This document shows positions 9,801 through 63,271 of a stretch of 64,000 nucleotides of DNA, piece by piece. The position numbers and the translations under genes are program-made. Position 1 is the first letter of the stretch. The number at the start of each line of letters is the position of its first letter. Under the pieces are notes generated by a model, which had not been told where the DNA came from, did no database searches, and saw only the letters and a list, made by a program, of their open reading frames with translations. The stretch comes from an uncultured Thiotrichales bacterium (GTDB lineage Bacteria > Pseudomonadota > Gammaproteobacteria > GCA-2400775), in NCBI GenBank assembly GCA_964617475.1, contig CAZTYM010000007.1, positions 9,523 through 73,522 of the forward strand. The letters run 5' to 3'.

Positions 9801-9802
9801 TG

Positions 9803-10819: not shown

Positions 10820-10825
10820 AGCCTA

Positions 10826-13021: not shown

Positions 13022-13070
13022 TTTGCGGAAATGACGTAAATATTTATAATCATTAGACTTTTGTAAAAAT

Positions 13071-13146: not shown

Positions 13147-13234
13147 CTTAGAACCGCTGCGCGTTTCATTAAGTACTTCCTGAACCCGTGTTACTCGTTC
13201 TGGTCGCACTTTGAAATAAAACCCTTCAGAAATT

Positions 13235-13345: not shown

Positions 13346-13455
13346 GGACTGATTTTATAGGGGTCGGTACCTCGTTTTTTGTTTTGTAAAAACGGGTCCG
13401 TTACCCCTTAAAATCATTTCCGCTGAAAGCGGGAATCACAAGCCTAATAAAATTT

Positions 13456-22399: not shown

Positions 22400-22625
22400 T
22401 CTGGTTGCCCTCCGCAACGTTATTGACAAAAGCGTTAGGCCGGTCTCCGGACTCGCGAGGCTATATTCATGCGCCTTCCCATGTGTGGACACAGTGGCGT
22501 GCTGCAGGAATAACTCGCTTACCGTTGCGGGGGCAGTGTCGGGTTTGCTAATAATTAAGATTACTAATTATAGTTATGCGCACCGACTTCCCGTTTAACT
22601 TTGGTTTTAGCCAAAGCACCTAAGG
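22400..22625 (-). promoter_or_regulatory. Cobalamin (B12) riboswitch in the btuB leader
   Basis: The minus strand shows GGTGCTTTGG...AAACGGGAAGTCGGTGCG...CCGACACTGCCCCCGCAACGGTAA...GCCACTG...GGGAAGGC. It also shows the B12 box AGTCCGGAGACCGGCC, which is the complement of 22438-22453. All are conserved core elements of the cobalamin riboswitch. Confidence 0.9.
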
Positions 22626-22638
22626 CAGTGAGGTGACC

Positions 22639-25086: not shown

Positions 25087-25110
25087 GAAAAATACTCCAA
25101 AAAATAAATT

Positions 25111-30186: not shown

Positions 30187-31329
30187 GTGAATTTAGATAA
30201 GTTGTTGCAAATTATGATTGATGAGCAGGCATCCGATCTGTTCATCAGCGTCGGTTCGCAACCATCGGTCAAAATTAATGGCGTGCTTTATTCGCTGGAA
30301 GGCCCTGTTTTGGATAGCGACACAGCAGAAAAACTTGTCTATGGGGCTATGCGAGATGAGCAAAAAGAACAGTTCGATAGAGAATTTGAATTGAATTTTG
30401 GCATTCTTCGCGAAGGTATTGGCCGTTTTCGAGCCAATGCATACCGTCAACAATATCGGCCCGGTATGGTTATTAGACGTATTGAAACTAATATTCCGAC
30501 TGTTCAATCACTGGGTTTACCCAATATTGTTGAACGTATGTCTATGGAAAAAAGAGGTTTAATCCTGATAGTGGGTGCAACCGGGGTCGGTAAATCGACA
30601 ACCATGGCCTCAATGGTAGGGCATCGTAACCGTCACGGTAGTGGTCACATAGTTACAGTAGAAGACCCTATTGAATTTGTTCACAGTCCGCAATGCTGTG
30701 TCATCACGCAAAGGGAAGTGGGCATAGATACGAAGTCGTATCAAATGGCGCTGCAAAATTCATTGCGACAAGCGCCAGATGTCATTGTCATTGGTGAGAT
30801 TCTCGATAGTACTACCATGCATCATTCCCTGGCGTTCGCGGAAACGGGCCATTTATCGCTAGCGCCACTTCATGCAGCAAATTGTTCACAGGCACTAGAG
30901 CGCGTCATCAATTTTTTTCCACGTGAACGTCGAGATGAGATATTGATGGATCTATCTCTTAACTTGCGCGCTATCATCGCGCAGCGTCTGGTGCCAACAA
31001 TCGATGGTGAAGGTCGCGAGTTGGTATTAGAAATTTTAACTAATAGTGCTTTAGCGACTGATTTAATTGCTCAGGGGCGCTTTGATGAAATTAAAAACCT
31101 CATGAAAAAATCTGCACAACATGATATGTGCACATTCGAACAATCACTTTATTCATTATATAGTGAAGGCAAAATATCTCAGGCAGATGCTTTGCAATAC
31201 GCGGATTCGCCGAATGAGTTACGACTGATGATTAAATTTAATTCAAACCAGGGTGCACGAGATGATGAATCTAAAAGTGGCCGGTTTTCGCCTTCAAGAG
31301 ACAAGGGCGCACCCTATTTTACTGGCTAG
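30187..31329 (+). CDS. pilU: Type IV pilus retraction-family ATPase PilU
   Basis: 380 aa with a GTG start. The Walker A GATGVGKST is the PilU form, whereas PilT has GPTGSGKST. The N-terminus and RQAPDVIVIGE, AETGHL and LHA regions closely parallel P. aeruginosa PilU as I recall it. Confidence 0.85.
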   Translation: MNLDKLLQIMIDEQASDLFISVGSQPSVKINGVLYSLEGPVLDSDTAEKLVYGAMRDEQKEQFDREFELNFGILREGIGRFRANAYRQQYRPGMVIRRIETNIPTVQSLGLPNIVERMSMEKRGLILIVGATGVGKSTTMASMVGHRNRHGSGHIVTVEDPIEFVHSPQCCVITQREVGIDTKSYQMALQNSLRQAPDVIVIGEILDSTTMHHSLAFAETGHLSLAPLHAANCSQALERVINFFPRERRDEILMDLSLNLRAIIAQRLVPTIDGEGRELVLEILTNSALATDLIAQGRFDEIKNLMKKSAQHDMCTFEQSLYSLYSEGKISQADALQYADSPNELRLMIKFNSNQGARDDESKSGRFSPSRDKGAPYFTG

Positions 31330-36317: not shown

Positions 36318-37190
36318 TTATTTGGATGAAAAGCTACCAGTGCCCGCAAACTCCCATACTCGGCTGATAACTAAGACATCAGTGTCAGCCCGCATTTCCG
36401 TAGGAAAGGGAGCGAAGGGAGCTGCAAGTTTAACGATGCGAATGGCTGCATCATCAAGCAATTTTTTTCCTGATGATCTAACTATTGTAATGCTTTCTAC
36501 AGAACCGTCGGGATACAAGCCAACATCGAGCTTTAGCTTGCCGCTTAGTTTGCGACGACGTGCTTCTTCTGGGTAATTGAGGTTGCCAATTTTTTCGATC
36601 TTTTTCTGCCAAGATTCAAAATAGGCGGCATCTCTAAACTCTTTTGTCTTGGTTGTAATCAGCCGGCGGCGTTGGTCGCTGCTTTGCGCGGTTTTAAATT
36701 GGTCTATTTCGCTGCTTACGCTGGCCAAAGCCAAACTACGTGATACTAACTCGTCGGCGTTGGGTAGATTTTCTTTCGGTTTGATATCTTTTTGTGGAGA
36801 AGTTTCTGCTACAACGGCCTTTTCTTTTTTTACCGTGATAGTGTCGATTTTTTGCTGGCTGACAGGTGGAGCGCTGGCTTGGCGAATTTGTTGGTTTGGC
36901 GATGGGATTGGTATATCGACAGCTTGTGACGCTGGGCTGGCGGCGCTTTGGTCGAGAACCGCATCGTTACCGCCGTCTTGATTGGCCTGAGCGAGTACTT
37001 TTGCGTCAGTTTGATCTTGTTCGCTACGCTGGTGAACCAGGGTGATGTCCATCGTGTGGCGCGGAGCTTGGGAATAGTCTTGCGGAGAAAAGCTAATTCC
37101 TAGGACGACAAATGCATGCAGCAGCAGTGCGAAAAACAATGCTAGAGTTAAATGATCACTTCTTGGGTTCGCCGAAATTGCGCTATTCAT
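36318..37190 (-). CDS. tonB: TonB-family energy transducer (TonB3-like by position)
   Basis: It has an N-terminal anchor LALFFALLLHAFVVLGI and a Pro/Gln-rich linker. Its C-terminal TonB domain is NLNYPEEARRRKLSGKLKLDV...RSSGKKLLDDAAIRIVKLAAPFAPFP. It occupies the gshB-to-algH position of P. aeruginosa TonB3. Confidence 0.8.
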   Translation of the reverse strand: MNSAISANPRSDHLTLALFFALLLHAFVVLGISFSPQDYSQAPRHTMDITLVHQRSEQDQTDAKVLAQANQDGGNDAVLDQSAASPASQAVDIPIPSPNQQIRQASAPPVSQQKIDTITVKKEKAVVAETSPQKDIKPKENLPNADELVSRSLALASVSSEIDQFKTAQSSDQRRRLITTKTKEFRDAAYFESWQKKIEKIGNLNYPEEARRRKLSGKLKLDVGLYPDGSVESITIVRSSGKKLLDDAAIRIVKLAAPFAPFPTEMRADTDVLVISRVWEFAGTGSFSSK

Positions 37191-37701
37191 TTTGCAAATT
37201 GAGCTGCTTGTTGATCGCTAAAGCAAGACTACCATTGAATATGCCTGTAATAATAGCGACCGTTACTAGCACTGGCAGTAGGTGAAATAGCGCGTCATGA
37301 GGAATAAATAAGGCATAGGCGACCCAAAATTGCGCCAGAATATGCGCGATGGCTGCTATCACGCTATACCCCATAGCGCTAAGCTGTTGATTTAAAATAA
37401 GTTTAGCAGCACCTATTGCGATCAAGCTGGCACATGCACCACTGGCGCTAAGCATAAAAGTGGGTGACAGAAAGCTGCCAACAATGAGGCTAGCGATAAG
37501 GACACGTAGTGACGATACCCAGACCGCCGTACGCCAACCAAATTGCAAAAACACGACTATAGTGACGACATTGGCTAGTCCAATTTTTATTCCAGGTATT
37601 GGGCTGGGAATCGCACTCTCAAGTACATGAATGGCAATAGCCAGGGCGGTAAACCAGGCGATGACATGGTCGTGACGCTGGCTGGAAACGGTTGCATGCA
37701 T
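37183..37701 (-). CDS. Gx transporter family membrane protein (Hpre_diP_synt_I-like)
   Basis: 172 aa with 5 hydrophobic segments and no soluble domain. It has the family-typical pairing with a NusG-domain-II protein immediately upstream. The call rests on architecture and neighbourhood, not strong motifs. Confidence 0.55.
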   Translation of the reverse strand: MHATVSSQRHDHVIAWFTALAIAIHVLESAIPSPIPGIKIGLANVVTIVVFLQFGWRTAVWVSSLRVLIASLIVGSFLSPTFMLSASGACASLIAIGAAKLILNQQLSAMGYSVIAAIAHILAQFWVAYALFIPHDALFHLLPVLVTVAIITGIFNGSLALAINKQLNLQNE

Positions 37702-37715
37702 AAGTGCGTTAACGT

Positions 37716-38078
37716 TTAGAAATTAATGCTGTCATAGCGGCTGAGACTTTGGCCGATAACGCTTAAGCTTATGCGATTGGGTAGACAAGCACTGGCTTCA
37801 CCATTTTTACTTAACCAACCTTTGTGTATGCACTGTTTGTTTTTGCATGGTGATTGAATAAATGCGACTTTGCCGTTCTTAATTCGAATTAGACTTTCGC
37901 CTAATGATCCTTCGACACTGAGAGTATGGTCGCGCAACAACGAAAACTGTTGAGGTTTTTCATTCGCTACCTGCACGCTAGCATCGGTACCTCGATGGTT
38001 TGGCCCCCAAAAAGCGCTATAAAGAAAAGGCAGTGTTGCCAACGCTAGCACAATAACGATGATATCGGTTCGTCTCAT
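37716..38078 (-). CDS. NusG domain II-containing protein (DUF1312)
   Basis: 120 aa with an N-terminal TM helix. The motif SPCKNKQCIHKGWLSKNGEASACLPNRISLSV matches the DUF1312 pattern C-x4-C...G-W-I...C-L-P-N/H-R/K. Confidence 0.65.
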   Translation of the reverse strand: MRRTDIIVIVLALATLPFLYSAFWGPNHRGTDASVQVANEKPQQFSLLRDHTLSVEGSLGESLIRIKNGKVAFIQSPCKNKQCIHKGWLSKNGEASACLPNRISLSVIGQSLSRYDSINF

Positions 38079-39184
38079 AGTTCTGGGACAATGGTGACGT
38101 TCGGTTTTTGGCTAGTTTCATAGGTGATGCGTTTGGCAAGCGTGGGTGTTATAAATACGTTGCTGTTTTTATCAATGATCATAACGTGCCTGATATTCAT
38201 ATTCTTTGCAATGTCTTGCCACTGATCGATGCCTGCTATAAATAAGGCTGTCGCGGCTGCATCTGCTACTGCGCCATTATTGTGAACAATGGTCACAGAT
38301 GCAATATCGCTCGCTGGGTATCCCGTGCGTGGGTCGAGAATGTGGTGATATCGCTTACCTTCATGTTCAAAATAACGTTCATAATCGCCCGATGTAAAAA
38401 CCGCTTCATCACCCTCAATTGTCAGTGACGCAAAAACACTTTGGTTTCGTGGGTGCCGTATGCCTATTTTCCATGGTCGTGCGCCAGCGCTACCTATAGC
38501 ACGAAGATCACCACCTGTATTGATAATGGCATTATTGATATTACGTTCTTTCAGTAGTTCTATGCTCTGGTCAACAATCACGCCTTTAGCGAAACCACCT
38601 AGGTCAAAACTGACAGGTTTGCCGCTGTTAACCAAGATGTGATCGCCATCAAAGCTAAATTTCTCAGCACTGGGTATTAGGCTCATTACGTTCTGAATTT
38701 CCGTAAGAGAGGGAGGTGCAATGGGCGTGTCTTCGCTATGAAAGCCCCATAGCTCACTGAGTTTGCCGAGTGCAGGGTGAAACAGCCCTTGGCTTTGTTT
38801 TGATAGAGATAGTGCAAGCGCTATAAGTGCAGCGTCGCCACTTTCTATAGGGCTACGACCAGTGGCACTGAGTGCCTGGTTAATTTCGCCCAGTTTGCTG
38901 GGTTGCCAAGCGTGCCAATGTTGATGAAATGCTTTCATTCTGGCGCGAATATCAGCGCTTAAGGCGTCTCCTTGTTTTGTTTCAACATCAAATAAACTCA
39001 ATTCCACCAAAGTGCCAAAGGCAAAGATTTGGCTGCGATAGATGTTTTCCTGTTGATCTTTGCTGCATGCACTTAGGAGGCTGAGGCAGAAAACGTAAAC
39101 AGCGATATGTAGTGATGTTTTAAGCCAGCTTTTGTTCAATTGCGTCAAATAGCATTGCGCTAATGTTGATATTGTAAATAGCAT
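38075..39184 (-). CDS. apbE: FAD:protein FMN transferase ApbE (lipoprotein)
   Basis: It has ApbE motifs FDLGGFAKG, TSGDYERYF and HHILDPRTGYP, and a lipobox LSLLSAC. The ATG at 39184 overlaps gshB by 65 nt. In-frame TTG codons at 39148 and 39139 (MNKSWLKTSLHIAVYVFCLSLLSAC) are alternative starts. Confidence 0.85.
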   Translation of the reverse strand: MLFTISTLAQCYLTQLNKSWLKTSLHIAVYVFCLSLLSACSKDQQENIYRSQIFAFGTLVELSLFDVETKQGDALSADIRARMKAFHQHWHAWQPSKLGEINQALSATGRSPIESGDAALIALALSLSKQSQGLFHPALGKLSELWGFHSEDTPIAPPSLTEIQNVMSLIPSAEKFSFDGDHILVNSGKPVSFDLGGFAKGVIVDQSIELLKERNINNAIINTGGDLRAIGSAGARPWKIGIRHPRNQSVFASLTIEGDEAVFTSGDYERYFEHEGKRYHHILDPRTGYPASDIASVTIVHNNGAVADAAATALFIAGIDQWQDIAKNMNIRHVMIIDKNSNVFITPTLAKRITYETSQKPNVTIVPEL

Positions 39185-40067
39185 CGAGTTGTCTTACACA
39201 GGTCGGACTGGTTACGTTAACTTCTGTTAGATAGTCACCGATAACATCAATACCGACAAATAATAAGCCACGTTTAATCAATTCTGGTCCTACCTGCGCG
39301 CATATCCATTTGTCTCTATCGCTAAGCTCGACCCCTTTACCGCTGCCGCCAGCAGCAAGATTGCCTCTGCTTTCTCCGTCGGCCGGAATGCGCGCTAAGG
39401 CATAAGGCACAGGGACACCATTAATAAGTAATATTCGCTTATCACCTGATGAAATTTCGGGAATAAATTTTTGTGCCATCACCGTGCGACGCGCATTACG
39501 GCTGACCGTTTCAATAATGACATTTTTATTTGGGTCGGTGGCGCTGGTTCGAAACACTGATTCGCCACCCATGCCGTCTAGTGGTTTAACGACAGCTTCT
39601 TGTTGTTCCTCTATAAACGCACGAATTTGTTTAGGGTCACGGCTAATCAAGGTATTAGCACAGCATTGAGGAAACCAGGATATAAAGGCTTTCTCGCTGA
39701 CATCTCGTAAACTTTGTGGTTTATTAACAACCAGGCAGCCTTGTTGTTCAGCTAGTTCTAAAGCGTAAGTGGTGTAAATATATTCCATATCGAAGGGAGG
39801 ATCCTTGCGCATCAGGATGACGTCGAGCCTGTGGAGTTCATGTTCTTGCTCATCGCTAAGATCGAACCAATTCGTTTTATCATCTCTGACTGTAAGCGCA
39901 CGGCTCGTACAATGGCTTGTTCCAGCTTGAATTGAGATATCCGACTGTTCCATATATCGAAGCTCGTAACCTCGGGCCTGAGCTTCGAGCAACATAGCTA
40001 ATGTGGTGTCTTTAGCAGTATTGATGCTACTGATGGGGTCCATGATTACCCCTAAACGAAGAGTCAT
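39120..40067 (-). CDS. gshB: Glutathione synthetase
   Basis: 315 aa. The N-terminus LGVIMDPISSINTAKDTTLAMLLEAQARGYEL and the ATP-grasp C-terminal half are typical of prokaryotic GshB. Confidence 0.95.
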   Translation of the reverse strand: MTLRLGVIMDPISSINTAKDTTLAMLLEAQARGYELRYMEQSDISIQAGTSHCTSRALTVRDDKTNWFDLSDEQEHELHRLDVILMRKDPPFDMEYIYTTYALELAEQQGCLVVNKPQSLRDVSEKAFISWFPQCCANTLISRDPKQIRAFIEEQQEAVVKPLDGMGGESVFRTSATDPNKNVIIETVSRNARRTVMAQKFIPEISSGDKRILLINGVPVPYALARIPADGESRGNLAAGGSGKGVELSDRDKWICAQVGPELIKRGLLFVGIDVIGDYLTEVNVTSPTCVRQLDAIYNINISAMLFDAIEQKLA

Positions 40068-40194
40068 GATAATTACTCATTTTTAACTGGTTTGATAGTT
40101 GAGCCATAGTGTAGCCGATATATTGAGGTAGGCGAAATCAACTTTTTTGCCTGAATTATGCTCTAAGAGTATGAAAATTCGAAAAATTTTACTC

Positions 40195-40210
40195 TGGCAC
40201 GGGTAATGCC
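40195..40210 (+). promoter_or_regulatory. Candidate sigma-54 (-24/-12) promoter upstream of pilG
   Basis: TGGCACGGGTAATGCC matches TGGCACG-N4-TTGCW at GG(-24) and GC(-12) with correct spacing. It lies about 55 nt upstream of the pilG ATG. Confidence 0.35.
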
Positions 40211-40265
40211 TTTGGCATAGCTGCCGACATATTTATTTAAGGAATTGATATGGGGTAGAACGCAT

Positions 40266-40685
40266 ATGGCTGATGGCAATCAGCTACTAGAAGGCATCAC
40301 GATAGTATTGGCAGATGATAGCCAAACCATACGCCATACCGTTGAGGCGGTATTGGGCGCGGCTGGCTGTCGCGTTGTATCTGCAGAGGATGGTTTCGAT
40401 GTTCTTGCAATGGTAGTTGATGAGATGCCGCACCTGGTGCTGCTCGATATCAATATGCCCAGATTGGACGGCTATCAGGCTTGCGCGCTCATAAAACAAA
40501 GTGATCGCTGTGGTCATATTCCTGTGGTGTTATTGTCCGCCCAAAATAGCGTATTTGATCGAGCGCGTGGCAAGGTGGTGCGTGCTGACAATTATCTCGT
40601 TAAGCCGTTTAGCCGAGACGAATTGATTGAAGTGGTTCGATGTCTTACTAAAAAAAGCCAGTCAGGCGTAGATGGGGTGATGTAG
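40266..40685 (+). CDS. pilG: Twitching-motility response regulator PilG (CheY-like)
   Basis: It closely parallels P. aeruginosa PilG (DDSQTIRHT...EDGFDVLA...MPRLDGYQACALIK...YLVKPFSRDEL). It is divergent from gshB. The track ORF begins at a TTG at 40245. Confidence 0.85.
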   Translation: MADGNQLLEGITIVLADDSQTIRHTVEAVLGAAGCRVVSAEDGFDVLAMVVDEMPHLVLLDINMPRLDGYQACALIKQSDRCGHIPVVLLSAQNSVFDRARGKVVRADNYLVKPFSRDELIEVVRCLTKKSQSGVDGVM

Positions 40686-41197
40686 TGGAGGAGAGACGTC
40701 AACATCAGGATCGCCGCAGAAGTGATCGCTACGGAAGCTTTGACAGCGAGCTATATGTTGCTTTCCGTTGTGCTGAATACCATTTTGTTTTTGAAAAGCA
40801 AGAAGTGATGGCAATAACGCCATTACCTAATATTATTTCATTGCCCTTGAGCCATCACTGGTTTGTTGGTGTTACTAGTATCAGTGGCTATATAGCCTGC
40901 GTTACTGATCTGAGCGCATATCTAAACCTGGAGCCGGCAATCACCAAGGAAGGTGCCAAATTGATTTTGACTGCGCATGGCGATAATGTCTTTGGTCTAG
41001 TTGTGGATTCAATTGTTGGGGTGATTGAATGTCAGTCTTGTGAACGTTCTCGCGCAATTTACCCAATTGAAATAGAAACTTTTACTTCTCGTCAGCGTTG
41101 TAATGGTGATCAGTGTTATGACGAGTTCGATATTAGGCGTTTGTATCTAGATCCTAAGTTCCAGAATGCGGTGACACTAACGTCGCATAGTTCCTAA
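40685..41197 (+). CDS. pilI: CheW-like coupling protein (PilI position) with Arg-rich N-terminal extension
   Basis: 170 aa with a GTG start sharing one base with the pilG stop. It has a CheW-like core (YVAFRCAEYHFVFEKQEVMAITPLP...FVGVTSISGYIACVTDLSAYL...FGLVVDSIVGV). Confidence 0.6.
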   Translation: MEERRQHQDRRRSDRYGSFDSELYVAFRCAEYHFVFEKQEVMAITPLPNIISLPLSHHWFVGVTSISGYIACVTDLSAYLNLEPAITKEGAKLILTAHGDNVFGLVVDSIVGVIECQSCERSRAIYPIEIETFTSRQRCNGDQCYDEFDIRRLYLDPKFQNAVTLTSHSS

Positions 41198-41233
41198 CAT
41201 TATTTATGCAAATAATCATATTTCACTAAGTTC

Positions 41234-43264
41234 ATGTCTAGTTTCGCCAGATACTTGCTGACACTATTTGCCGGTCGAAAAAGCTGGCATTTACTGTTGT
41301 TTTTATTTTTGATTATGCAACTTATTGCTGGTTTTTGGTTGTTACATCAGGAAAAACAGGCGGAGTCAGCTTACGTTGCGCAGCTACATGAACTGCTCGA
41401 AGCATCGGTGCGAATAGTGAGATATGCCGTTACATCGAGTCAACTGGATTTAGATTCGCTAGATAAATTAAGTGCAGGGGTCAGGCGTTATCAACGCGGT
41501 TTGGATACCATTCGTGCTTCTATATTGGCGAAAGAACCAGCAAGGGCGCAGTCCATAGATAGGCTTAATGCTGTATGGGTTCCTGTTCGCGATGCTGCAC
41601 AGAGATTATTAGGTCATACCAATGATCTGGCCGAGCTAAGAAAAGCTGTAGAAGAAACGGATCAACGTTTACCCGATGTGTTGTCACAATATGAGTCGGT
41701 AATTGGTGATCTGCAAGCAACGGTCAATGATGCATCAGATTTAAAGCTATTGCGTGATCAGCAACTTATTCTGCATAGAGTCGCTGCGAATATAAATACC
41801 GTCACAGGTGGAATATTGGGTGGCGTCGATGTTAACGCGCGTAGCGCAATATCGGGCTCAATCGAGTCAGATTTATTCTTGCTAGAAAAAAGTCTAGGTT
41901 TTTTGACTATAGGGGATGGTGAAGCCAGTCAACAGTCAGATGTATTAATTGGAGAGGTTTCCTTACGTATTCAAATTGAAAGTATGATAGAACAGCTGAA
42001 AGAGTTAGCTGGCTCAGTACGAACAGTTATCGAATCAGCAGCTGTTATGAGGGAAGTGAATAAATATTCTCAGGTGCTGGTAGAAGACGGTGGCGCATTG
42101 CTTAATCCTATTCAGGTGTTGGCAAAAAATAGCACTATGCGTTCTGGGAAAAAAAATATCTATACCGTCTGGATTGCATTTGCTGCAATATCTTTAGTTC
42201 TCTGGTTAATCTATGTTGGGTTTGAGCACATGCTTCGAGCTCGCTCAATTGCTGCGGCTGCCGAAAAGGACAAAGAGCATTTGCAATCGATGGTTGACGA
42301 TGTAGCAAGACAAATGGCCAGTTTTTCCGAAGGGGATCACGGGGTTAATGTTCGTAGCAAGACATATAGTGATCAACATCTTGTGGTGCAAGCTAACCGC
42401 ATGATTGAACATGTCTCAGCAGTTGACAAACAAATTCAAGAAAATTATTTGCCCATTATCAAGCGTGTTGCCGAAGCGGACAGCGAAATTGCCAGTTCTA
42501 TTGATCGTCAAACAAATGATATTGCACGCCTGAGCGTCGAATTAAATAACATCGTTGCAAGCAAAACATCGGGCTCCGCGTTGCTTTCCAATCACATGTC
42601 AAAAATAAATGGGCAACTGCAACAGCTAAGCACGCAAGTAGGTGCATTGAAAAACCATATCATTGGTCGCGATGAGCCGGAAGGAGATCGTGTTAGTGCC
42701 CATGAAGTGCGGCAACTACAATCCCATATAACGGATCGATTGGGGTCACTTTCTGATTTGTCCAAGCGTATTCATCAAGATGTCATAGATGCGAGTTCTT
42801 TGCTTGCTACGGCTATGTCTGGTGATCGCTCTATGCGTCGTAGTATTGAACAGCTGCAAACGTTAACTGGTCGTTACTTAGGGATGGTAGATGATATTGA
42901 AGCATTGCTCGCGAATATGGATACCGCGGTAGCGGCGTTACATACAGCAGATACTGAAAAACATGATGTTAAAGCTAAGTTTGATGCATTGGATCATGCC
43001 GTATCAGATGCGCTACTTGAAGCTGAGAATGGCAGTCAAGAGTTACTGGCAGCAGTTAATAACAGTGATGGTAAGCAAGCTGAACAGGCCGAGAGAGTAG
43101 CGCTGATTCTTGATGAGTTGCAAGATGGCAATCAACGTATGGCTGTGGTGGCAACGACCAGTGATATTGGCACAAAGGAATTAAACAAGTTGGCGTCAAA
43201 GCATTTGAAAAAAGTGCTTTCAAATGAGAATCAAAGCTCCAACAAAGAAGGGCCTTCTTCATGA
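41234..43264 (+). CDS. PilJ-like transmembrane chemoreceptor homologue with degenerate signalling tip
   Basis: 676 aa, versus about 680 for PilJ. TM1 is near residues 20-40, followed by an approximately 270-aa helical periplasmic region, TM2 near residues 309-331, and a post-TM2 segment SFSEGDHGVNVRSKTYSD resembling PilJ EIADGDLTVRARVTED. I cannot find the canonical MCP tip (LALNAAIEAARAGE-GRGFAVVA-EV). Confidence 0.55.
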   Translation: MSSFARYLLTLFAGRKSWHLLLFLFLIMQLIAGFWLLHQEKQAESAYVAQLHELLEASVRIVRYAVTSSQLDLDSLDKLSAGVRRYQRGLDTIRASILAKEPARAQSIDRLNAVWVPVRDAAQRLLGHTNDLAELRKAVEETDQRLPDVLSQYESVIGDLQATVNDASDLKLLRDQQLILHRVAANINTVTGGILGGVDVNARSAISGSIESDLFLLEKSLGFLTIGDGEASQQSDVLIGEVSLRIQIESMIEQLKELAGSVRTVIESAAVMREVNKYSQVLVEDGGALLNPIQVLAKNSTMRSGKKNIYTVWIAFAAISLVLWLIYVGFEHMLRARSIAAAAEKDKEHLQSMVDDVARQMASFSEGDHGVNVRSKTYSDQHLVVQANRMIEHVSAVDKQIQENYLPIIKRVAEADSEIASSIDRQTNDIARLSVELNNIVASKTSGSALLSNHMSKINGQLQQLSTQVGALKNHIIGRDEPEGDRVSAHEVRQLQSHITDRLGSLSDLSKRIHQDVIDASSLLATAMSGDRSMRRSIEQLQTLTGRYLGMVDDIEALLANMDTAVAALHTADTEKHDVKAKFDALDHAVSDALLEAENGSQELLAAVNNSDGKQAEQAERVALILDELQDGNQRMAVVATTSDIGTKELNKLASKHLKKVLSNENQSSNKEGPSS

Positions 43265-46200
43265 CAAAGATGAAGAAAGACATTTTGGAAACGCATACCG
43301 TTTTTAAACAAATGGGATCAGTTTTATTGGCGTGCCACGCATTAATAGAAGAGAAAAAAGAATGGGTTTCAGAGGAAGAGTTAGATCATTGTGTACGTGA
43401 ATTATCTTGCGTAGAAGGTGCGTTAAATCTAATTGGTAATACGACTTCTGCCTTATTATCTAATGAAATCAGTTCAGCTATTCGACTAGCTCAAAATGAA
43501 GAGAGCACAAATAAATCGACCGCTCTGATGATGTCGGCTAGCGCATTAAAAATATTGCTCGAGTCGATTAAAGAAGGTTTGTTTACTGCTGACGCAAATT
43601 ACCGACTGCTCTCGGTGATAAACAAACTCAGAGCGTTGCAAGAAAAAAAACCTTTGCCAGCGAGCGAAGTGTATAACATTGATCTAGACGTAGTGCCGGT
43701 AAACCAGAATTTAGAGGCGAATCACCGAGATTTTGCAGAGGTAGCGAAAAAACAAGGGCCAAAGCTTCAAACGGCGCTGTTGTCATGGTTTCAGAACTGT
43801 CAAAGCGCTGCTGCAATTGATGCCTTGGTTGATATTGCCGACAGTTTGCGTTTGTCGGCTTCTGAACGGCCTCATATACAGTTTTTCGAGGTTATTGCTG
43901 CACTAATTGACTCTCAGCGAGGCTGCGCGCATGTCAGTCAATCTATTCGTTTGTTGCTAGCATACGTCGAACGCTACGTCAGGCAACTGGCAGATATTGA
44001 AACTGAGCAAGGGTATCTGCCAACGACGATAACAAAAGAAGCTTTGTACCATATTGCCGCAAACGCTTATCAACGTAGTGATCGGGTAAAAGCTATTCTT
44101 GGTCGATACGGTTTACGCGACAGGCGTAGTCGCAAGCGAGACAAGCCCGGGGGGGAAGGATTGCAACCTGCGTTTCTCACTGGTGGTGGCGATAACGTTA
44201 AATCAGAATCTGGCTTGCAAGCGCTTAGAGAATGTCGGCGTGAGCTATCGAGTTTGGAGAGAGATATCGAAGCTTGGGTGTTAAGTCCAGACAAAGACAA
44301 GTTATTTACTGCGGCATATGAACGACTTTATAGGATTAGACACTGTTTTGATTTATTGGATATGTCAAGGCAAGCAAATGTTTGCGAAAACTTGCAAAAG
44401 GTATTGCTGGCAATTCATCAGTCACCTGAGGATAAGGATGGTGCCGTTCAACAATTAGCTGAAAGTATCGCTGCGCTGTCTTGTTCTATTGATGTAATAA
44501 CTTCTGCAGATGGTGCTCCTCCGATATCTATAAGTGAGTTATTAACAACAGCAGAAAGGCCATTTGATGAAACTAGTGATGGTGGCCAAGATATCGTTCA
44601 AGAACAAACGAAAGCAAGAAACGAAAACACAATTGAGCCAGAAGCAGTAGTTGATAATGATATAGAGGCTGTTAGTGATTTTTTTGAAGATACAGAAAGT
44701 TTGTTAGTTGAGTTCGATTCGCTTATCGAAACTTCAGAGTTGCTTTCGGTTTCAGACGATGATATCTCAGCACCTGAAGAAGAAAGTATGCCTTTGAAGC
44801 AGGTGCATGATTTATCTGAGAGCTTTTCTATCGAAGCTGCGGATTTATTGCATCAGATGCAGCAGCAACTAAACCTAATGCAAGGTAATATCGCTAGTGA
44901 GGAACCTGTCAACGCAATATTGCGGTTATTGCACACTTTGAAAGGGGCAGCGCGCATTGCTGGTCACGCAAAACTAGGTGATATGTCGCATGGCTTAGAA
45001 TCGACCTTGTCTTCAGTAGTATCAGGCATACTTCATATGACTCCGGAAATAGCGGAGTCAACGCGACAATCTATGGTCGCTATGCAGGCTTTGGTTTCTA
45101 GTCAAACTAGTGTCAACGAAGAACATGACATTTTTTTAGAATCTGAAGGCGAGAGCGAAGCCTTGGTTGCAAAAGAACACGAACATAGTGTGGAAGAAAA
45201 GCATGCTGTTGCTAGCGTGGCGTCAGAGCGTCGAGAAATACCCATAGCCCGGATGTTGCAACTTAATGCTGAAAACTTATTAGGACAATCATATTTGTCT
45301 GCAGAAATTCTACAGGCGATGTCTGCCGTAGCCGAGTTTGACCCTATTATTCACCGCTTATCAGATAAGTTCCACGATAAAAATATTCCAAAGGATAGCC
45401 AAGTGCGAATAGGTGAGGCGATCAATGATCTACGATTGGCCGCAAATCAGGCTTTACGATGTATTGATCAGGTCGAAAAGCGCTTGGATCACTTGCATAT
45501 ATCAGAATCGACGCTTAGGCAAACACTACTGACAGAAAAAATGGTGGCAATAGAGTCTGACGTTGTAGCTTACCATTCCCTTGTAGAACAGACTGCGAGT
45601 CAACTCGGCAAGAAAGTGTCCTTGCGCACGCATGGCTTAGGTTTGCGTATAGATCGCAAAGTATTATCAACCTTATCTGCAGCCATCGGACATTTAGTCC
45701 GCAATGCTATTGATCATGGTGTTGAGATGGATACTGTTCGTATTCATTCAGGTAAGCCTGAAACTGCCACCTTATCCATTGATGTCAAGGTTGATATCGA
45801 CGGTATCAACATTTCCGTAACTGATGATGGTGCTGGTATCGATTTACGAGCGATATGGAGAAAAGCTTTTGCGAAAAACCTTGTTAACGACAATGAAGTT
45901 TTTGACGAAAGTCGCGCATATTATTTTTTATTTGATGCTGCGTTTTCAACAAAAACCCTTGTCACTCAAGTCTCGGGTAGAGGAGTGGGTCTTGACGCAG
46001 TTAAAGCAAATATTGACCGACTAGGCGGGAAAGTAGGTGTAGACAGCGAAATTGGTCATGGGGCACGGTTCTGGCTCAGTTTACCAGTCCATTATGGTGT
46101 TGTACCGCATTTGATTTTTAAAGTCGGCGATCACCGATTTGGCCTGCCAGGGTTATCTGATAAGGTGGTTGTAGAAATTGACAGTATCGATTCTGAGCTA

Positions 46201-46926
46201 GAGGTTCACGGTAAAACCTATAGATGTATCGATTTATCAGATCAGTTGGGCTTGCCTCAACCATTGCTATCAGGCCAATCATGGCGAGCAGTTTTATTTG
46301 AGTATCAAGATGTTAACTATGCATTGATTGTTTCTCAAGTAGAAGGTGTAGAGAAGGTTACTAGTGATGCGCCAGTGGGACAACTACAACAGGCCGAATA
46401 TTTGCTTGGAATCGGCCTTTTGGAAGAAGGTGGTCTACTGCCTATTTTAAATTTGGCTTACTTTTTAAATAATGATAGCGAGCTGGCGGAGGTTAACCAC
46501 CAGTCTAATAATAGAGCAAAAGATCATTTGGCACAGGCGGTTTTAGTTGTGGATGACTCGTTAACCATCCGACGATACTGTGAAAACTTATTGCGTTCAA
46601 ATGGGTACAGCGTACTACTAGCCAAATCTGCTGAAGAAGCTTTGACGATGGCAGGTGAATCAAATATCGATATATTGCTAACTGACCTTCAATTACCAAA
46701 GATGGATGGTTGTCAGTTGATAGACGAGCTTCGCAGATTGACCGCATATAGTGACTTACCAGCAATACTTATCAGCGCTAGCCCACGTGATGAAAAAATT
46801 GTGCAGCAGCACAATATATCAAGTTGGTTAAGTAAGCCTTATACTGACCAAGAGTTATTCGACACTCTAGCAGCTCTAACGCCGCGACGGGAAAATGGGA
46901 ACTCTACTGACGATGCCATCGACTAA
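43261..46926 (+). CDS. chpA: ChpA/CheA-like hybrid histidine kinase (Hpt - HATPase - CheW-like - receiver)
   Basis: 1221 aa. It has an Hpt motif LLHTLKGAARIAGH (His codon 44932-44934), N-box HLVRNAIDHGVE, G1 VTDDGAGID and G2 GRGVGLD. It also has a CheW-like region and a C-terminal receiver VLVVDDSLTIRR...DILLTDLQLPKMDG...SKPY. It overlaps the PilJ-like stop by 4 nt. Confidence 0.85.
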   Translation: MTKMKKDILETHTVFKQMGSVLLACHALIEEKKEWVSEEELDHCVRELSCVEGALNLIGNTTSALLSNEISSAIRLAQNEESTNKSTALMMSASALKILLESIKEGLFTADANYRLLSVINKLRALQEKKPLPASEVYNIDLDVVPVNQNLEANHRDFAEVAKKQGPKLQTALLSWFQNCQSAAAIDALVDIADSLRLSASERPHIQFFEVIAALIDSQRGCAHVSQSIRLLLAYVERYVRQLADIETEQGYLPTTITKEALYHIAANAYQRSDRVKAILGRYGLRDRRSRKRDKPGGEGLQPAFLTGGGDNVKSESGLQALRECRRELSSLERDIEAWVLSPDKDKLFTAAYERLYRIRHCFDLLDMSRQANVCENLQKVLLAIHQSPEDKDGAVQQLAESIAALSCSIDVITSADGAPPISISELLTTAERPFDETSDGGQDIVQEQTKARNENTIEPEAVVDNDIEAVSDFFEDTESLLVEFDSLIETSELLSVSDDDISAPEEESMPLKQVHDLSESFSIEAADLLHQMQQQLNLMQGNIASEEPVNAILRLLHTLKGAARIAGHAKLGDMSHGLESTLSSVVSGILHMTPEIAESTRQSMVAMQALVSSQTSVNEEHDIFLESEGESEALVAKEHEHSVEEKHAVASVASERREIPIARMLQLNAENLLGQSYLSAEILQAMSAVAEFDPIIHRLSDKFHDKNIPKDSQVRIGEAINDLRLAANQALRCIDQVEKRLDHLHISESTLRQTLLTEKMVAIESDVVAYHSLVEQTASQLGKKVSLRTHGLGLRIDRKVLSTLSAAIGHLVRNAIDHGVEMDTVRIHSGKPETATLSIDVKVDIDGINISVTDDGAGIDLRAIWRKAFAKNLVNDNEVFDESRAYYFLFDAAFSTKTLVTQVSGRGVGLDAVKANIDRLGGKVGVDSEIGHGARFWLSLPVHYGVVPHLIFKVGDHRFGLPGLSDKVVVEIDSIDSELEVHGKTYRCIDLSDQLGLPQPLLSGQSWRAVLFEYQDVNYALIVSQVEGVEKVTSDAPVGQLQQAEYLLGIGLLEEGGLLPILNLAYFLNNDSELAEVNHQSNNRAKDHLAQAVLVVDDSLTIRRYCENLLRSNGYSVLLAKSAEEALTMAGESNIDILLTDLQLPKMDGCQLIDELRRLTAYSDLPAILISASPRDEKIVQQHNISSWLSKPYTDQELFDTLAALTPRRENGNSTDDAID

Positions 46927-47947
46927 CAGTGCAAAGCTCGGTTTGTTAGTTTGCAGCTCCTTTGCTGAGTCACGCTTGTCGACGCCATTAGCAGAAGCAG
47001 GCTGGCAAGTTGTAGCGAAAGTAATTTTGGCTGATAGCGATTCAGATATTGGTAGCTTGCTAGCGGCGGATGTGTTGATAGTCGACCTGGATGGGGCGAA
47101 TCAAGCACAGCTTCAGTGGCTTAACGATTTGATTGGTCATGAGTCCAGGCCGGTAATTTTTAATGACGCGAGTAGTGATCAAGCTTGGCTCGCAAATTTG
47201 ATTAGTAAACTTGAAGAGCTTCCAGAAACTAGTCGGTTTGCTAAGGTGGTTGAAAATGACGCAATTTCGAAGATAGACCAAACTATTCCAGATGATTCCA
47301 TCCTTGCAACGCAAGCAATTGATGGGGCTGCAGAGTTTTCAGGAATTGATGGAAAAAATGATATTGAACAAGGTGATCAAGAATCCGATGTGAGTATATG
47401 GATGATTGCTGCTTCTCTTGGTGGGCCAAAAGAGTTAAGAGATTTATTTTTAGCTGTTCGGCCAGATTTGCCTGTGTGTTTCTTTGTATCCCAACGTATC
47501 GCGATGGAACATATTGATTCTTTGGTTAGCTATCTTGCGCGTTATAGTCGTTACGATGTGTCTGTGCTTGCCAATGGTATGTCGGTGTCTAAAGGCAAAA
47601 TCATTCTTGTTCCTGATGGTTATCAATTTATTGTTAGTGAAGATGGTAATGTTTCCGCATCTGAAACTGCTAATGAAGATGGCGATGAATTAGATGTGAA
47701 TATTGCTGCATTAGCAAATGCCCGTGGAAGCAGTGCTGGTGTTATGATGTTGAGCTCGATCAGTGAAATAGGCGTGAAAGGTTGCGAGCAAATGCTAAAC
47801 GAGGGTGGCAGGGTATGGCTGCATAATAGTCTGCCTCAATATTTTAGTCAGATCACTTCAGAGCAGTATGGTGATCGTGTCGTAACAGCTACTGCGGCTA
47901 CTTTGGCTGATCGATTTAATTTGCTCTATTCAGATATCTCAGATTAG
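46895..47947 (+). CDS. CheB-like methylesterase-domain protein (ChpB position), probably catalytically degenerate
   Basis: The C-terminal half aligns by eye with CheB (IAASLGGPKELRDL...). The N-terminal 120 aa are receiver-like but lack the N-terminal acidic pair. The start (46895 or 46913) overlaps chpA. Confidence 0.5.
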   Translation: MGTLLTMPSTNSAKLGLLVCSSFAESRLSTPLAEAGWQVVAKVILADSDSDIGSLLAADVLIVDLDGANQAQLQWLNDLIGHESRPVIFNDASSDQAWLANLISKLEELPETSRFAKVVENDAISKIDQTIPDDSILATQAIDGAAEFSGIDGKNDIEQGDQESDVSIWMIAASLGGPKELRDLFLAVRPDLPVCFFVSQRIAMEHIDSLVSYLARYSRYDVSVLANGMSVSKGKIILVPDGYQFIVSEDGNVSASETANEDGDELDVNIAALANARGSSAGVMMLSSISEIGVKGCEQMLNEGGRVWLHNSLPQYFSQITSEQYGDRVVTATAATLADRFNLLYSDISD

Positions 47948-48690
47948 ATATCTCCCCATCGACTTTGAATAGCACTAATGGAGGCTATTGCCGCGGTCTC
48001 TGTACGCAGAATTCTTTGTCCGAATTTAATAGAGGAAAAGTGATTGGCACAAAGATCTGCGATTTCCTTATCACTAAAACCTCCTTCTGGGCCAATTACT
48101 ATTGAGATGGATTTTTCCTCTTGAATTTCTTGATCACGTAAAGAGCTCGAAGCTCTTGGATGAAAAAGCCAACGCTGAGCGCCGCTGATATCATTATTAG
48201 CTATAAGTTCTTGCAAGTTAGTTATTTGATGTAGCGTAGGTAAGGTGTTGCGGCCACATTGTTCGCATGCGTTTTTGATAATGCCTGTCCAATGGTCAAA
48301 GCGTGAAATAGCGCGGTTTTCGTTCAGTTTTACATTGCAGTGCTCGCTAATGATTGGGCGAATTGAAGTGACACCTAACTCAACCACTTTTTGAATGATC
48401 CAATCCATTTTTTCGCCGCGCGCCAATGTCTGGATTAACTCAATAGATAGTGTTGGTTCTGGTTCGTTTGGCTGTTTGCTTTCGACTAGTAATTTTGCAG
48501 AACGTTTGGATTCTACACGGAGTTTGGCTTGATAAGCATTACCCTGTCCGTCGAATATTTCGATACAGGTGCCGTCCCGAAGACGCAATACGTTCAGCGT
48601 ATAATGTCGCGTTGCGTCATCAAGACTAATAGTTGATTTCTCGCGTATTATTGCGAGGTCTGGTGTAATGCATAGACGGTGTTTTGCCAT
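47944..48690 (-). CDS. rsmE: 16S rRNA (uracil1498-N3)-methyltransferase RsmE
   Basis: 248 aa. It has the RsmE pattern (HYTLNVLRLRDG, EKMDWIIQKVVELGV, IGPEGGFSDKEI). Confidence 0.9.
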   Translation of the reverse strand: MAKHRLCITPDLAIIREKSTISLDDATRHYTLNVLRLRDGTCIEIFDGQGNAYQAKLRVESKRSAKLLVESKQPNEPEPTLSIELIQTLARGEKMDWIIQKVVELGVTSIRPIISEHCNVKLNENRAISRFDHWTGIIKNACEQCGRNTLPTLHQITNLQELIANNDISGAQRWLFHPRASSSLRDQEIQEEKSISIVIGPEGGFSDKEIADLCANHFSSIKFGQRILRTETAAIASISAIQSRWGDI

Positions 48691-61210: not shown

Positions 61211-63271
61211 ATGGAAATTATTAAAGATGGCGTTTGCTTGATTCTCACAGTGGTTTATTTCGCCGCTGCGGTTTTCTTGCTGCTTAGATGGAAAGGGCAA
61301 CTTGATCGTGGGCTGCTTATTTTTGCCTCATTTTTCACCTCATTATGGTTATTCTCCCTTTTTCTGTTTGATGAACCAAACACAAGAATCGTATCTAAAT
61401 TTTTACATCTTTCGCATATGTTTTTATGGCTTGGTCTATTGCTTAGACTGCTTCATGCCAAACATAGGAGTTACAACCAACGAGTTTTTGTTATTGGTGT
61501 GATTTTTCTGGCTGTTTGTGCGGCCAGTATGATTGGTATATTTAGCCTCTTACAGGACAGCGAAGAACAATTTTTGGGGTTAGTCGCGGCAACACATAAG
61601 CTGTTTCCCTCTGTTTTAATATTCATTTCACTGGCTGGTTTATACGTAGTTTGGCGCGTAAATAGGCTGCGTAACCTGGAGCGTCGCGCTAATGTTCGCG
61701 TAATTTGCCTGATGGTGAGCTTTATACTTGCCTACAATTTTATCTATGGCGCTCAAATTATTATTACGGGTTTATCACCTCAATGGCATTCGCTGTTACT
61801 GCTTGCTCTTTATAGTATGAGTGCGATTTTACTCGTTAAATCTACGTTGCAACGCAATCAGCGATGGGTTGAAAACGTTTATATTTCACGTGATGCCGTT
61901 ATGTATATCGCTGGCATGGCGATGGTTGCGATGGTGGCCTACAGCTTGATGATGTTCTTTCGCGGTATCGATGGCGGTGGCCGTCTAGATTATGCATTTG
62001 CGTATCTATTAATCGCGGTTTTTTGCGCTGCCATCTTAGTTGCTTTTTTTTCAACTCGCGCGCGAGCGCATACGCATGTATTTTTAAGTAAACATTTTTT
62101 TAATTATCGCTATGATTACCGTGAGGAATGGTTGCGGTTGATACGGACCTTGTCTAAGGGTGGTGCCGGCGCGCACATGCTGGAACGCGTAATTCAATCC
62201 ATCGCCCAAATTGTTGGTAGCAGAGGTGGGATGTTATGGGTTAATCGACATGGAGAAACTTATGATCCTGTGGCACGTTGGGGTGAATTTACTAATGTCG
62301 AACAATCAGAGCTATCTGACGGTGGCTTGGTTAGGTTTTTAGAAGAGCGTCAGTGGGTAATTGAACGTAACGAATATATCCATGAACCGGAATTGTATGA
62401 AGGATTGGAGCTGCCTGAGTGGATATTGAAATCGGACCAAATATGGTTGATTGTCCCTTTGATGCAGGACGTGCGACTTCTCGGTTTTGTTGCTTTACCG
62501 CAGTCTTCGGTTAGGAGATCGATTAACTGGGAAGATCGAGATTTGATAAAAACCGCTGGCAGACAAGCTGCGACTCATATTGCTCAAATGTTGGCAACCC
62601 AGGCATTAATGGAATCACGCGAATTTGATGCCTTTAATCGATTATCCGCTTTCGTGGTTCATGATATTAAAAACGTTGTTGGGCAATTGGCTTTAATCAC
62701 TAATAACGCGCAGAAGCATCGTGATAACCCGGAATTCGTTGACGATGTATTTACTACTGTAGAAAGCGCTTCACGCCGAGGAGAACGCTTGCTCGCGCAA
62801 TTGCGGGACCGATCGCCACGTGCAGCCGTACAGACAAAAGTCGATTTAATAGAGTTGCTGCGAGAAGTGATATCAGAACGTTCCGCATACCTGCCAAAAC
62901 CTGATCTCATGCTACAAAAGAACGCAGTTACGGTGATGGCAGATGCGAAGCAATTAAAGGAAGTGATAAGCCATCTGGTCGAAAATGCTCAGCAGGCCAC
63001 TGACAAGTCAGGTAGCGTAGAATTAAAACTAGATTCGGCGAACCACTATGCAGTTATCGATGTGGTTGATAATGGTTGTGGTATGGATGCAGAGTTTATT
63101 CGAGAGAGACTGTTTAGGCCTTTTGATTCAACAAAAGGCAATGAGGGTATGGGTATTGGTGTGTACCAGAGTAGGGAGATCATCAGGTCACTTCGTGGTA
63201 GTTTGGATGTTGAAAGTTCGCCTGGAGAAGGAAGCAAGTTTACGCTTCGTCTGCCGATAGTAGATGAATAG
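61211..63271 (+). CDS. prsK: PEP-CTERM/exosortase-system-type sensor histidine kinase PrsK-like
   Basis: 686 aa. It has about 8 N-terminal TM segments, a GAF-like middle, H-box FVVHDIKNV, and an HATPase (DNGCGMD, GMGIGVYQSREI). It is followed by a PrsR-like NtrC-family regulator. This size and architecture are as I recall for the PrsK family. Confidence 0.7.
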   Translation: MEIIKDGVCLILTVVYFAAAVFLLLRWKGQLDRGLLIFASFFTSLWLFSLFLFDEPNTRIVSKFLHLSHMFLWLGLLLRLLHAKHRSYNQRVFVIGVIFLAVCAASMIGIFSLLQDSEEQFLGLVAATHKLFPSVLIFISLAGLYVVWRVNRLRNLERRANVRVICLMVSFILAYNFIYGAQIIITGLSPQWHSLLLLALYSMSAILLVKSTLQRNQRWVENVYISRDAVMYIAGMAMVAMVAYSLMMFFRGIDGGGRLDYAFAYLLIAVFCAAILVAFFSTRARAHTHVFLSKHFFNYRYDYREEWLRLIRTLSKGGAGAHMLERVIQSIAQIVGSRGGMLWVNRHGETYDPVARWGEFTNVEQSELSDGGLVRFLEERQWVIERNEYIHEPELYEGLELPEWILKSDQIWLIVPLMQDVRLLGFVALPQSSVRRSINWEDRDLIKTAGRQAATHIAQMLATQALMESREFDAFNRLSAFVVHDIKNVVGQLALITNNAQKHRDNPEFVDDVFTTVESASRRGERLLAQLRDRSPRAAVQTKVDLIELLREVISERSAYLPKPDLMLQKNAVTVMADAKQLKEVISHLVENAQQATDKSGSVELKLDSANHYAVIDVVDNGCGMDAEFIRERLFRPFDSTKGNEGMGIGVYQSREIIRSLRGSLDVESSPGEGSKFTLRLPIVDE

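Follow-up and report, generated by a model that had tools for sequence, protein, structure and literature searches.

Can a Pil-Chp chemosensory pathway work without PilH, without the methyltransferase PilK and with a ChpB that lacks its catalytic histidine? This question is raised by a 64,000-nt stretch of DNA (the window) from an uncultured Thiotrichales bacterium (contig CAZTYM010000007.1 of GCA_964617475.1, positions 9,523-73,522 of the forward strand), in which five tightly coupled genes (40266-47947, + strand) encode PilG, PilI, a PilJ homologue, a short ChpA and a ChpB homologue (Table 1). Read from its sequence, this locus is probably a working, simplified ChpA-to-PilG relay without methylation-based adaptation, in which ChpB is retained as a pseudo-enzyme. 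A preliminary description of the locus had proposed such a relay, kept while adaptation was lost, and the proposal finds support in the intact relay residues, the lack of a CheR in the ~80 kb scanned, and the broken catalytic triad of ChpB.

Gene content and derivation of the locus

The G of the pilG TAG stop codon (40683-40685) doubles as the first base of the pilI GTG start, a spacer of 36 nt separates pilI from the receptor gene, and the receptor and kinase genes overlap by 4 nt (ATGA). The kinase gene ends in TAA at 46924-46926 and overlaps chpB by 32 or 14 nt, depending on whether the ATG at 46895 or that at 46913 is the chpB start, while the 3′ end of chpB overlaps the convergent rsmE by 4 nt. 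Because the junctions overlap or leave only 36 nt, a further gene cannot fit between the five. Besides the five open reading frames (ORFs) on the + strand, no ORF of 100 aa or more was found on either strand in 40245-47947; the minus strand has two shorter ones, of 84 and 86 aa, within chpA and chpB. NCBIfam agreed with Pfam on the five proteins. Both the ORF list and direct reading of the sequence bear out the five-gene layout and the junctions given in the preliminary description. Scans of the locus with Rfam and for tRNA genes gave no matches, and promoter and terminator scans of it gave results within about 1.5 standard deviations of shuffled controls, with promoter-like sites rarer than expected. 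A sigma-70 consensus scan found no match upstream of pilG in 40068-40265, where the operon promoter presumably lies.

The locus sits in the conserved Pil-Chp context. Upstream are genes for a PilT/U-like ATPase, pyrC, pyrB, pyrR, ruvX, algH and tonB, then Hpre_diP_synt_I, NusG_II and ApbE, and finally the divergent gshB; downstream are rsmE, metF, ahcY and metK. The position of gshB is the same in two outgroup contigs, L011 and L010 (the latter from Rehaibacterium terrae, Xanthomonadales), as is that of rsmE in L011 and in L013, a contig from TARA Oceans. The nearest ChpA outside the clade (P0013) is encoded on L011, where the flanks match those of the window (pyrB, ruvX, algH, tonB, Hpre_diP_synt_I, NusG_II, ApbE and gshB on one side; rsmE, metF and ahcY on the other) and enclose a complete pilG-pilH-pilI-pilJ-pilK-chpA-chpB-chpC. 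Since the full eight-gene set lies between the same flanks in L011, the five-gene form is derived, and the slot is orthologous, as had been proposed. From this comparison, the reduction removed pilH, pilK and chpC and left a ChpA of 1221 aa where the outgroup has one of 1885 aa.

The missing genes were sought in every window ORF of 110 aa or more, together with ~6 kb upstream and ~10 kb downstream of the window, ~80 kb in all. Within this ~80 kb around the locus there was no CheR or CheR_N (PilK), which is present in L011, no lone CheY besides pilG (PilH) and no further CheW (ChpC). The preliminary description was right that the locus has neither a second CheY nor a CheR-type PilK, and chpC is absent too.

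Every related lineage recovered (L001/L008, L002, L003/L007, L009 and, on a short contig, L012) has these five genes in this order, bounded by gshB (in most also gshA) and by rsmE-metF-ahcY-metK. The clade material is all metagenomic. Three relatives were present in the GTDB species-representative collection, all of them metagenome-assembled genomes (one 'uncultured Thiotrichales bacterium' and two 'Gammaproteobacteria bacterium'), and the window sequence itself was found again in many metagenome assemblies. The comparison of related genomes called for in the preliminary description gave the five-gene order in all five lineages found. Judged by this recurrence, the pattern is neither an assembly accident nor a chance arrangement of ORFs. 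By gene order and homology, the operon, which belongs to a small clade of uncultured marine Gammaproteobacteria, is orthologous to the Pil-Chp operons of the type IV pilus (Tfp) class.

How fast has the module changed? Flanking proteins are 38-76% identical to those of L011 (BLAST), and the components of the module are 48% (PilG), 22% (PilI), 25% over only 183 aa (PilJ), 30% (ChpA) and 22% (ChpB) identical. In a control pair, L011 against the Xanthomonadales contig L010, where the flanks are 45-60% identical, PilG is 82%, PilJ 54% over its full length, and ChpA 57% identical. By these identities, it is the signalling module that has evolved fast in this clade and not the whole genome.

A rival reading takes the locus for a decaying relic, what is left of a Pil-Chp system that no longer functions and is heading for deletion. 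In its favour, the locus is short of three genes and of about 660 aa of ChpA, each component that remains scores far lower with Pfam than its outgroup counterpart, and a still smaller, three-gene locus occupies the same slot in L013. However, all five ORFs are intact in at least five lineages whose proteins have diverged by 30-60% in sequence, and translational coupling is preserved. The proportion of non-synonymous differences (pN) is far below that of synonymous differences (pS), at 0.05-0.11 compared with 0.63-0.68 for pilG, pilI and pilJ (L001 vs L012). The catalytic residues of kinase and receivers are intact, and the rewritten hairpin tip is the most conserved segment of the receptor in the clade. 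We consider a relic highly improbable; on the evidence of intact ORFs and low pN, the five-gene module is under purifying selection, which is consistent with a working relay.

Two differences in the flanks accompany this comparison. The ApbE, NusG_II-domain and Hpre_diP_synt_I trio (37183-39184, - strand) is inserted between tonB and gshB; it is common to L011 and absent at the Rehaibacterium locus, and serves as a lineage marker for the synteny argument. In sister lineages gshA lies between gshB and pilG (L001:7506-8813, L002:7541-8848, L009:1577-2884), and the window lineage has no gshA there, only the 198-nt intergenic region (40068-40265).

Receptor, kinase and the probable relay to PilG

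The receptor gave no match to the Pfam MCPsignal model (the signalling domain of methyl-accepting chemotaxis proteins, MCPs) even at E ≤ 1, where the outgroup PilJ scores 154.7 bits, and the Pfam PilJ model itself did not match it either. Only six clusters at 90% identity were found for it among 5.8 billion proteins. An exhaustive HMMER search of 1.84 billion representatives returned only four strong matches, and its weak matches were canonical PilJ proteins with PilJ and MCPsignal domains. When the clade profile was aligned with seven canonical PilJ proteins (hhalign), the two matched with a probability of 99.6% and E 1.4e-24 over residues 11-654 and 12-666, respectively. The periplasmic part was recognised both by profile, where six receptor sequences together matched the periplasmic domain of Pseudomonas aeruginosa PilJ (7zjr, E 1.4e-3), and by structure, where a Foldseek search with the AlphaFold2 (AF2) model gave 7zjr and 8wdf as the best matches (E 8e-7 and 1.4e-6; template modelling (TM) score 0.76-0.79 on the target). 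From these alignments, the receptor is homologous to PilJ from end to end, has kept the canonical length and architecture, and contains a periplasmic domain of the PilJ type. What it does not have is a canonical MCP signalling domain with the conserved tip.

The hairpin tip of chemoreceptors is considered to be among the most conserved elements of bacterial signalling, since it contacts CheW, CheA and neighbouring receptors. The tip in the window, LSDLSKRIHQDVIDASSLLATAMSGDRSMRRSIEQLQTLTGRY, aligns to the canonical PilJ tip without gaps; hhalign and a merged MAFFT alignment both place it at residues 509-548, and the AF2 model has a helix break at 527-530. Thirty tip columns are invariant in the seven canonical PilJ proteins; of these, the window retains 5, and 4 are common to all six clade members. 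Within the clade, the tip is nonetheless the best-conserved segment of the receptor (65% mean pairwise identity, compared with 42-55% elsewhere). Its pN (0.050, with a pS of 0.616; L001 vs L012) is the lowest of the cytoplasmic segments and is equalled only by that of the periplasmic domain. The preliminary description had called the tip decayed. This was correct in so far as no MCPsignal domain is recognisable and few of the invariants are left, but 'decay' is the wrong word, because the tip is the most conserved receptor segment in the clade and has a low pN. As the alignments present it, the tip was rewritten and then fixed, that is, re-specified rather than eroded. A candidate remnant of the QTNLLALNA tip, DRQ[TA]NDIARLS at residues 424-434, was rejected, as it aligns ~90 residues upstream, on the descending arm of the hairpin.

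The C-terminus of the receptor differs as well. The canonical GFKLP motif is present in all seven canonical PilJ proteins aligned, with F, K, L and P invariant, and in the alignment it is absent from the whole clade (43190-43264 in the window). Loss of the motif goes together with that of PilK and of ChpB catalysis.

ChpA is much shorter than its relatives but has the parts of a Tfp-class kinase. Pfam assigned Hpt (histidine phosphotransfer) to residues 518-604, HATPase_c to 805-943, CheW (the P5 domain) to 951-1070 and Response_reg to 1094-1203, and precomputed annotation gave FimL_2nd and FimL_C matches for the N-terminus. The FimL-like residues 38-411 align to residues 38-407 of the outgroup ChpA, and the kinase/P5/receiver part (719-1203) is kept, the region from kinase core to receiver being 29.7% identical over 502 aa to outgroup residues 1378-1879. 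About 660 aa are missing between these two parts. Hpt scored 39.5 bits in one stretch, compared with 171.5 bits in four stretches in the outgroup; the remaining Hpt, with HTLKG at residue 558, has its best BLAST match in the outgroup Hpt at 1018-1090. The closest relatives of ChpA outside the clade are canonical ChpA proteins of 1566-2115 aa, with ~27-31% identity over 36-42% of the query. The N box (HLVRNAIDHG at 811), G1 box (DDGAG at 855) and G2 box (GRGVG at 906) are all present.

The first gene of the operon encodes a PilG-type CheY. It scored 89.6 bits with Response_reg (Pfam), has the receiver residues D17/D18, D61, S91 and K113, and matched the outgroup PilG (134 bits, 48% identity) better than the outgroup PilH (74.7 bits) by BLAST. 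A search of the PDB could not tell PilG from PilH, since neither is represented there, and it was the BLAST comparison with the outgroup proteins that decided. With the three kinase boxes, the Hpt histidine, the ChpA receiver and the PilG receiver residues intact, the kinase-to-PilG relay appears to have been kept, as the preliminary description had suggested.

Does this relay still act on pili? A two-component-like switch repurposed for a non-pilus output, such as a second messenger or gene expression, as in systems of the alternative cellular function (ACF) type, would fit the loss of PilH, which drives reversal in P. aeruginosa (PMC12129077, PMC12632253), and of adaptation, since with them go the features that directional taxis needs. 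It would also fit the unusual divergence of PilG, 48% identical where canonical systems share 82%. However, the PilJ-type sensor, the orthology of PilG and the position beside the PilT/U-like ATPase have all been kept, a minor-pilin/PilY1 operon lies in the same window, and the locus has no alternative output domain. Repurposing thus seems quite improbable to us. For the pilus-controlling relay that we favour, the minor-pilin/PilY1 operon is likely, from its gene content, to be the nearby-encoded output machinery. The last gene of that operon (6270-6707, - strand) matches the ComP_DUS family (E 2.6e-10), minor pilins of the DNA-uptake-sequence receptor type, a hint of pilus-mediated DNA uptake.

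PilI and the P5 domain of ChpA, through which receptor and kinase would be coupled, are kept and have diverged in step with the receptor. PilI scored 53.3 bits with CheW (Pfam), compared with 92.1 bits for the outgroup PilI, to which it is 22% identical; it had no BLAST match to the outgroup ChpC. That receptor and kinase are coupled in a non-canonical way, as the preliminary description also raised, is speculation. A possible but tentative form of this idea is that, once PilH, PilK and ChpC had been lost, the receptor tip, PilI and the P5 domain evolved together. They would then form a novel interface that is orthogonal to every other chemosensory system and perhaps no longer builds canonical arrays of trimers of dimers, and the dead ChpB would belong to the complex in a structural or regulatory role. 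Such a rewriting of the near-invariant chemoreceptor tip in a pathway that still functions would, if real, be rare in nature.

ChpB and methylation-based adaptation

ChpB matched CheB_methylest with 70.6 bits (cut-off 24; profile positions 2-141 of 174), compared with 148.2 bits for the outgroup ChpB. Its N-terminal domain is receiver-like but without the acidic pair, and gave no REC match in Pfam. A single-sequence phmmer search of the PDB with ChpB returned no match and a four-sequence profile was needed; the clade profile aligned to the CheB structures 3sft, 1chd and 1a2o. In Foldseek, the AF2 model of ChpB was best matched by full-length CheB (6ymz and 1a2o, E 2e-13 to 1e-11) and by the catalytic domain 3sft, with a TM score of 0.80. 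On the strength of the model and these matches, the two-domain CheB fold is retained.

The catalytic triad, Ser164-His190-Asp286, is not complete. In alignments that used the sequences of 1CHD, 3SFT, the outgroup ChpB and the Rehaibacterium ChpB, the serine is kept in the clade (Ser174 in the window, 47414-47416) and in L011. The histidine position holds Arg in five of five clade members (Arg201 in the window, 47495-47497), whereas His is kept in L011. The aspartate position holds Ile in the window (Ile292, 47768-47770), Gln in L007, and Asp in L001, L002, L009 and L011. The preliminary description had inferred a decayed esterase triad, and the clade-wide change of His190 to Arg, with that of Asp286 to Ile in the window, agrees with it. 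In P. aeruginosa, the equivalent change of the histidine, chpB H184Y, is a loss-of-function allele (PMC12129077). His310, in the motif VWLH, was considered as a replacement catalytic histidine; it is Gln in L009 and so is not invariant.

Are there still sites in the receptor for methylation to act on? The predicted methylation pairs of P. aeruginosa PilJ are Q412/E413, Q623/Q624 and Q639/E640 (PMC10896506). The corresponding columns in the clade hold AE, MK, IK, SQ, AK and AK at the first pair, KQ, SQ, AQ, AH, AQ and SQ at the second, and an invariant QD at the third, so that none is a conserved Glu/Gln pair; we take this as suggestive only, since it is read from aligned positions. A strict 10-residue methylation-motif regular expression had no match in the clade and none in most canonical PilJ proteins, and does not discriminate between them. 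The Rehaibacterium operon, which has no pilK, encodes a 550-aa ChpB (L010:16293-17945, GCA_014202935.1) in which Ser164 is replaced by Gly and His190 by Gln. This second case suggests that decay of the ChpB triad may generally accompany or follow the loss of PilK.

A complete but dispersed pathway would explain the gene content of the locus differently: pilH, pilK and perhaps chpC would be elsewhere in the genome, ChpB would hydrolyse methyl esters with a non-canonical active site, and adaptation by methylation would persist. The scan covered ~80 kb of the genome, Ser174, a GG motif and the CheB fold are conserved in ChpB, and the protein is clearly under selection, being 33-53% identical across the clade. 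However, all five lineages carry Arg in place of the catalytic His and two have also lost Asp286, the equivalent H184Y change kills ChpB function in P. aeruginosa (PMC12129077), and the substitute His310 varies. The aligned methylation positions hold no conserved Glu/Gln pairs, and the ChpB of pilK-less Rehaibacterium has likewise lost both Ser and His. A dispersed pathway is in our view rather unlikely.

Some points weigh against a relay without adaptation, or against parts of the evidence for it. The receptor might still be methylated by an unlinked CheR beyond the ~80 kb. In ChpB, the invariance of Ser174 and of the GG motif makes residual or altered hydrolytic activity conceivable. The methylation sites were mapped indirectly, by coiled-coil alignment and a numbering offset to P. 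aeruginosa PilJ. The AF2 models are of moderate confidence, with a predicted local distance difference test (pLDDT) score of 65 for ChpB and 68 for the receptor, and dS is near saturation, so ratios of dN to dS are rough.

We nevertheless favour a relay that has lost its adaptation, and it would run as follows. The PilJ homologue would sense through its conserved PilJ-type periplasmic domain, and its remodelled hairpin tip would signal to PilI and to the P5 domain of the shortened ChpA. ChpA would autophosphorylate on the single Hpt histidine, His558, and the phosphoryl group would pass to Asp61 of PilG and so to control of the type IV pilus. The C-terminal receiver of ChpA would probably be a phosphate sink in place of PilH, the lost antagonist. 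Methylation-based adaptation would be gone, given that there is no PilK, that the ChpB histidine is Arg and that the methylation columns have no conserved Glu/Gln pair. ChpB would survive as a conserved pseudo-enzyme, probably with a binding or scaffolding role.

Window features and comparison with known systems

Table 1. Coordinates of the Pil-Chp locus, its neighbours and the pilus genes in the window
Feature	Coordinates	Strand	Description
Minor-pilin/PilY1 operon	6270-11894	-	Pfam: GspH/FimU-like, PilV-like, PilW, PilX, PilY1, PilE/ComP-like
PilT/PilU-like T2SSE ATPase	30187-31329	+	T2SSE 113.9 bits
gshB	39120-40067	-	Divergent upstream neighbour marking the Pil-Chp slot; GSH-S_N/GSH-S_ATP Pfam matches on the identical gene in L004
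Divergent intergenic region	40068-40265		198 nt, AT-rich; presumed operon promoter region
pilG	40266-40685	+	Single-domain CheY-like, 139 aa from ATG; ORF opens with TTG at 40245
pilI	40685-41197	+	CheW-like coupling protein, 170 aa, strongly diverged
PilJ homologue	41234-43264	+	676 aa; two transmembrane segments, PilJ-type periplasmic domain, long cytoplasmic helical hairpin
Periplasmic PilJ-type helical sensor domain	41351-42148	+	About residues 40-305
Rewritten hairpin tip	42758-42877	+	Residues 509-548; turn near 527-531 'AMSGDR'
Short ChpA	43261-46926	+	1221 aa: FimL-like N-terminus, one Hpt, kinase core, P5/CheW, C-terminal receiver
Sole recognisable Hpt of ChpA	44812-45072	+	His558 in HTLKG, codon 44932-44934
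ChpA kinase core, P5 and receiver	45673-46869	+	From motif positions and outgroup alignment
ChpB homologue	46895-47947	+	350 aa (alternative start 46913); pseudo-receiver and CheB-fold domain, broken triad
rsmE	47944-48690	-	Convergent downstream neighbour closing the slot; Methyltrans_RNA and PUA_4 matches

Elsewhere in the window, a gene for a TonB-dependent receptor (20507-22321, - strand) has a cobalamin riboswitch (22421-22638, 117 bits) upstream and a cob(I)alamin adenosyltransferase gene (19944-20489, - strand) downstream. At 24031-26076 (- strand), a gene for a radical S-adenosylmethionine (SAM) protein with DUF3641 adjoins one for a SAM-dependent methyltransferase (Methyltransf_31), a pair that presumably resembles the arsenosugar biosynthesis genes ArsS/ArsM. 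A GAF-domain histidine kinase is encoded at 61211-63271 (+ strand), and just past the window (L014:12085-22061) it is followed by genes for a response regulator of the sigma-54 activator kind, for one AAA_16 and one outer-membrane beta-barrel protein, and for polysaccharide export (Wza, Wzc and Wzy types). By gene content, this kinase and the genes beyond it look like a regulatory and export locus for exopolysaccharide.

How does the locus compare with known Pil-Chp systems? It shares with that of P. aeruginosa the slot between gshB and rsmE, PilG, PilI, a PilJ-type sensor and a ChpA with FimL-like N-terminus, Hpt, kinase core, P5 and receiver. The receiver-like domain of ChpB is without phosphotransfer residues in both (PMC12129077), and that of P. 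aeruginosa is considered non-phosphorylatable (PMC12129077, PMC12632253). The two systems differ in that the window locus has no PilH, PilK or ChpC. ChpA proteins of the Tfp class typically combine several Hpt domains with a C-terminal receiver, and that of P. aeruginosa has at least eight Hpt-like domains (PMC10782961), whereas the 1221-aa ChpA of the window has one. Further differences are a receptor tip beyond the reach of Pfam MCPsignal and a ChpB without the catalytic histidine, and, unlike canonical PilJ, the window receptor has no C-terminal GFKLP.

Loss of PilK has precedents. The operons pilGHIJ-chpA of Ralstonia solanacearum (PMC7056806) and pilGHIJL-chpBC of Xylella fastidiosa and the Xanthomonadales (PMC9956873) have no PilK, like the window clade, and still control twitching. 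The R. terrae locus, pilGHIJ-chpABC without pilK, also shares the degenerate ChpB triad. Systems of the Ralstonia and Xylella type keep PilH, a canonical PilJ (with MCPsignal in L010) and a long multi-Hpt ChpA (2099 aa in L010). In contrast, the locus of the window clade lacks PilH, and its receptor has a rewritten tip. We found no paper in the literature on Pil-Chp systems without PilH, on a degenerate ChpB or on such a reduced form, and the combination of a locus without PilH, a ChpA with a single Hpt, a ChpB whose catalytic His is replaced by Arg and, most notable, a tip beyond Pfam appears to be new. A homologous receptor has exchanged about 25 of 30 invariant tip residues, and the new sequence then came under strong purifying selection; annotation by domain models would miss this receptor entirely.

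A further parallel is L013 (ERZ28655566 scaffold_353, 7326-14309), from another marine lineage with an independent and more extreme reduction, in which a CheW gene, a PilJ-like gene and a gene for a 1428-aa ChpA lie between gshB and rsmE. As in the window, its receptor (P0053) is hard to recognise, with 20 bits for MCPsignal, and its ChpA has become shorter. It differs in that pilG and chpB, besides pilH, pilK and chpC, are also absent from the locus, and its tip is less diverged, with 10 of the 30 canonical invariants kept compared with 5 in the window. With the eight-gene outgroup, the locus can be compared cleanly before and after its reduction to five genes, and with L013 added there is a natural reduction series of 8, 5 and 3 genes. 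This series bears on the P. aeruginosa Pil-Chp system itself: on which relay components are dispensable, on what can replace PilH, and on the role that ChpB may have besides catalysis.

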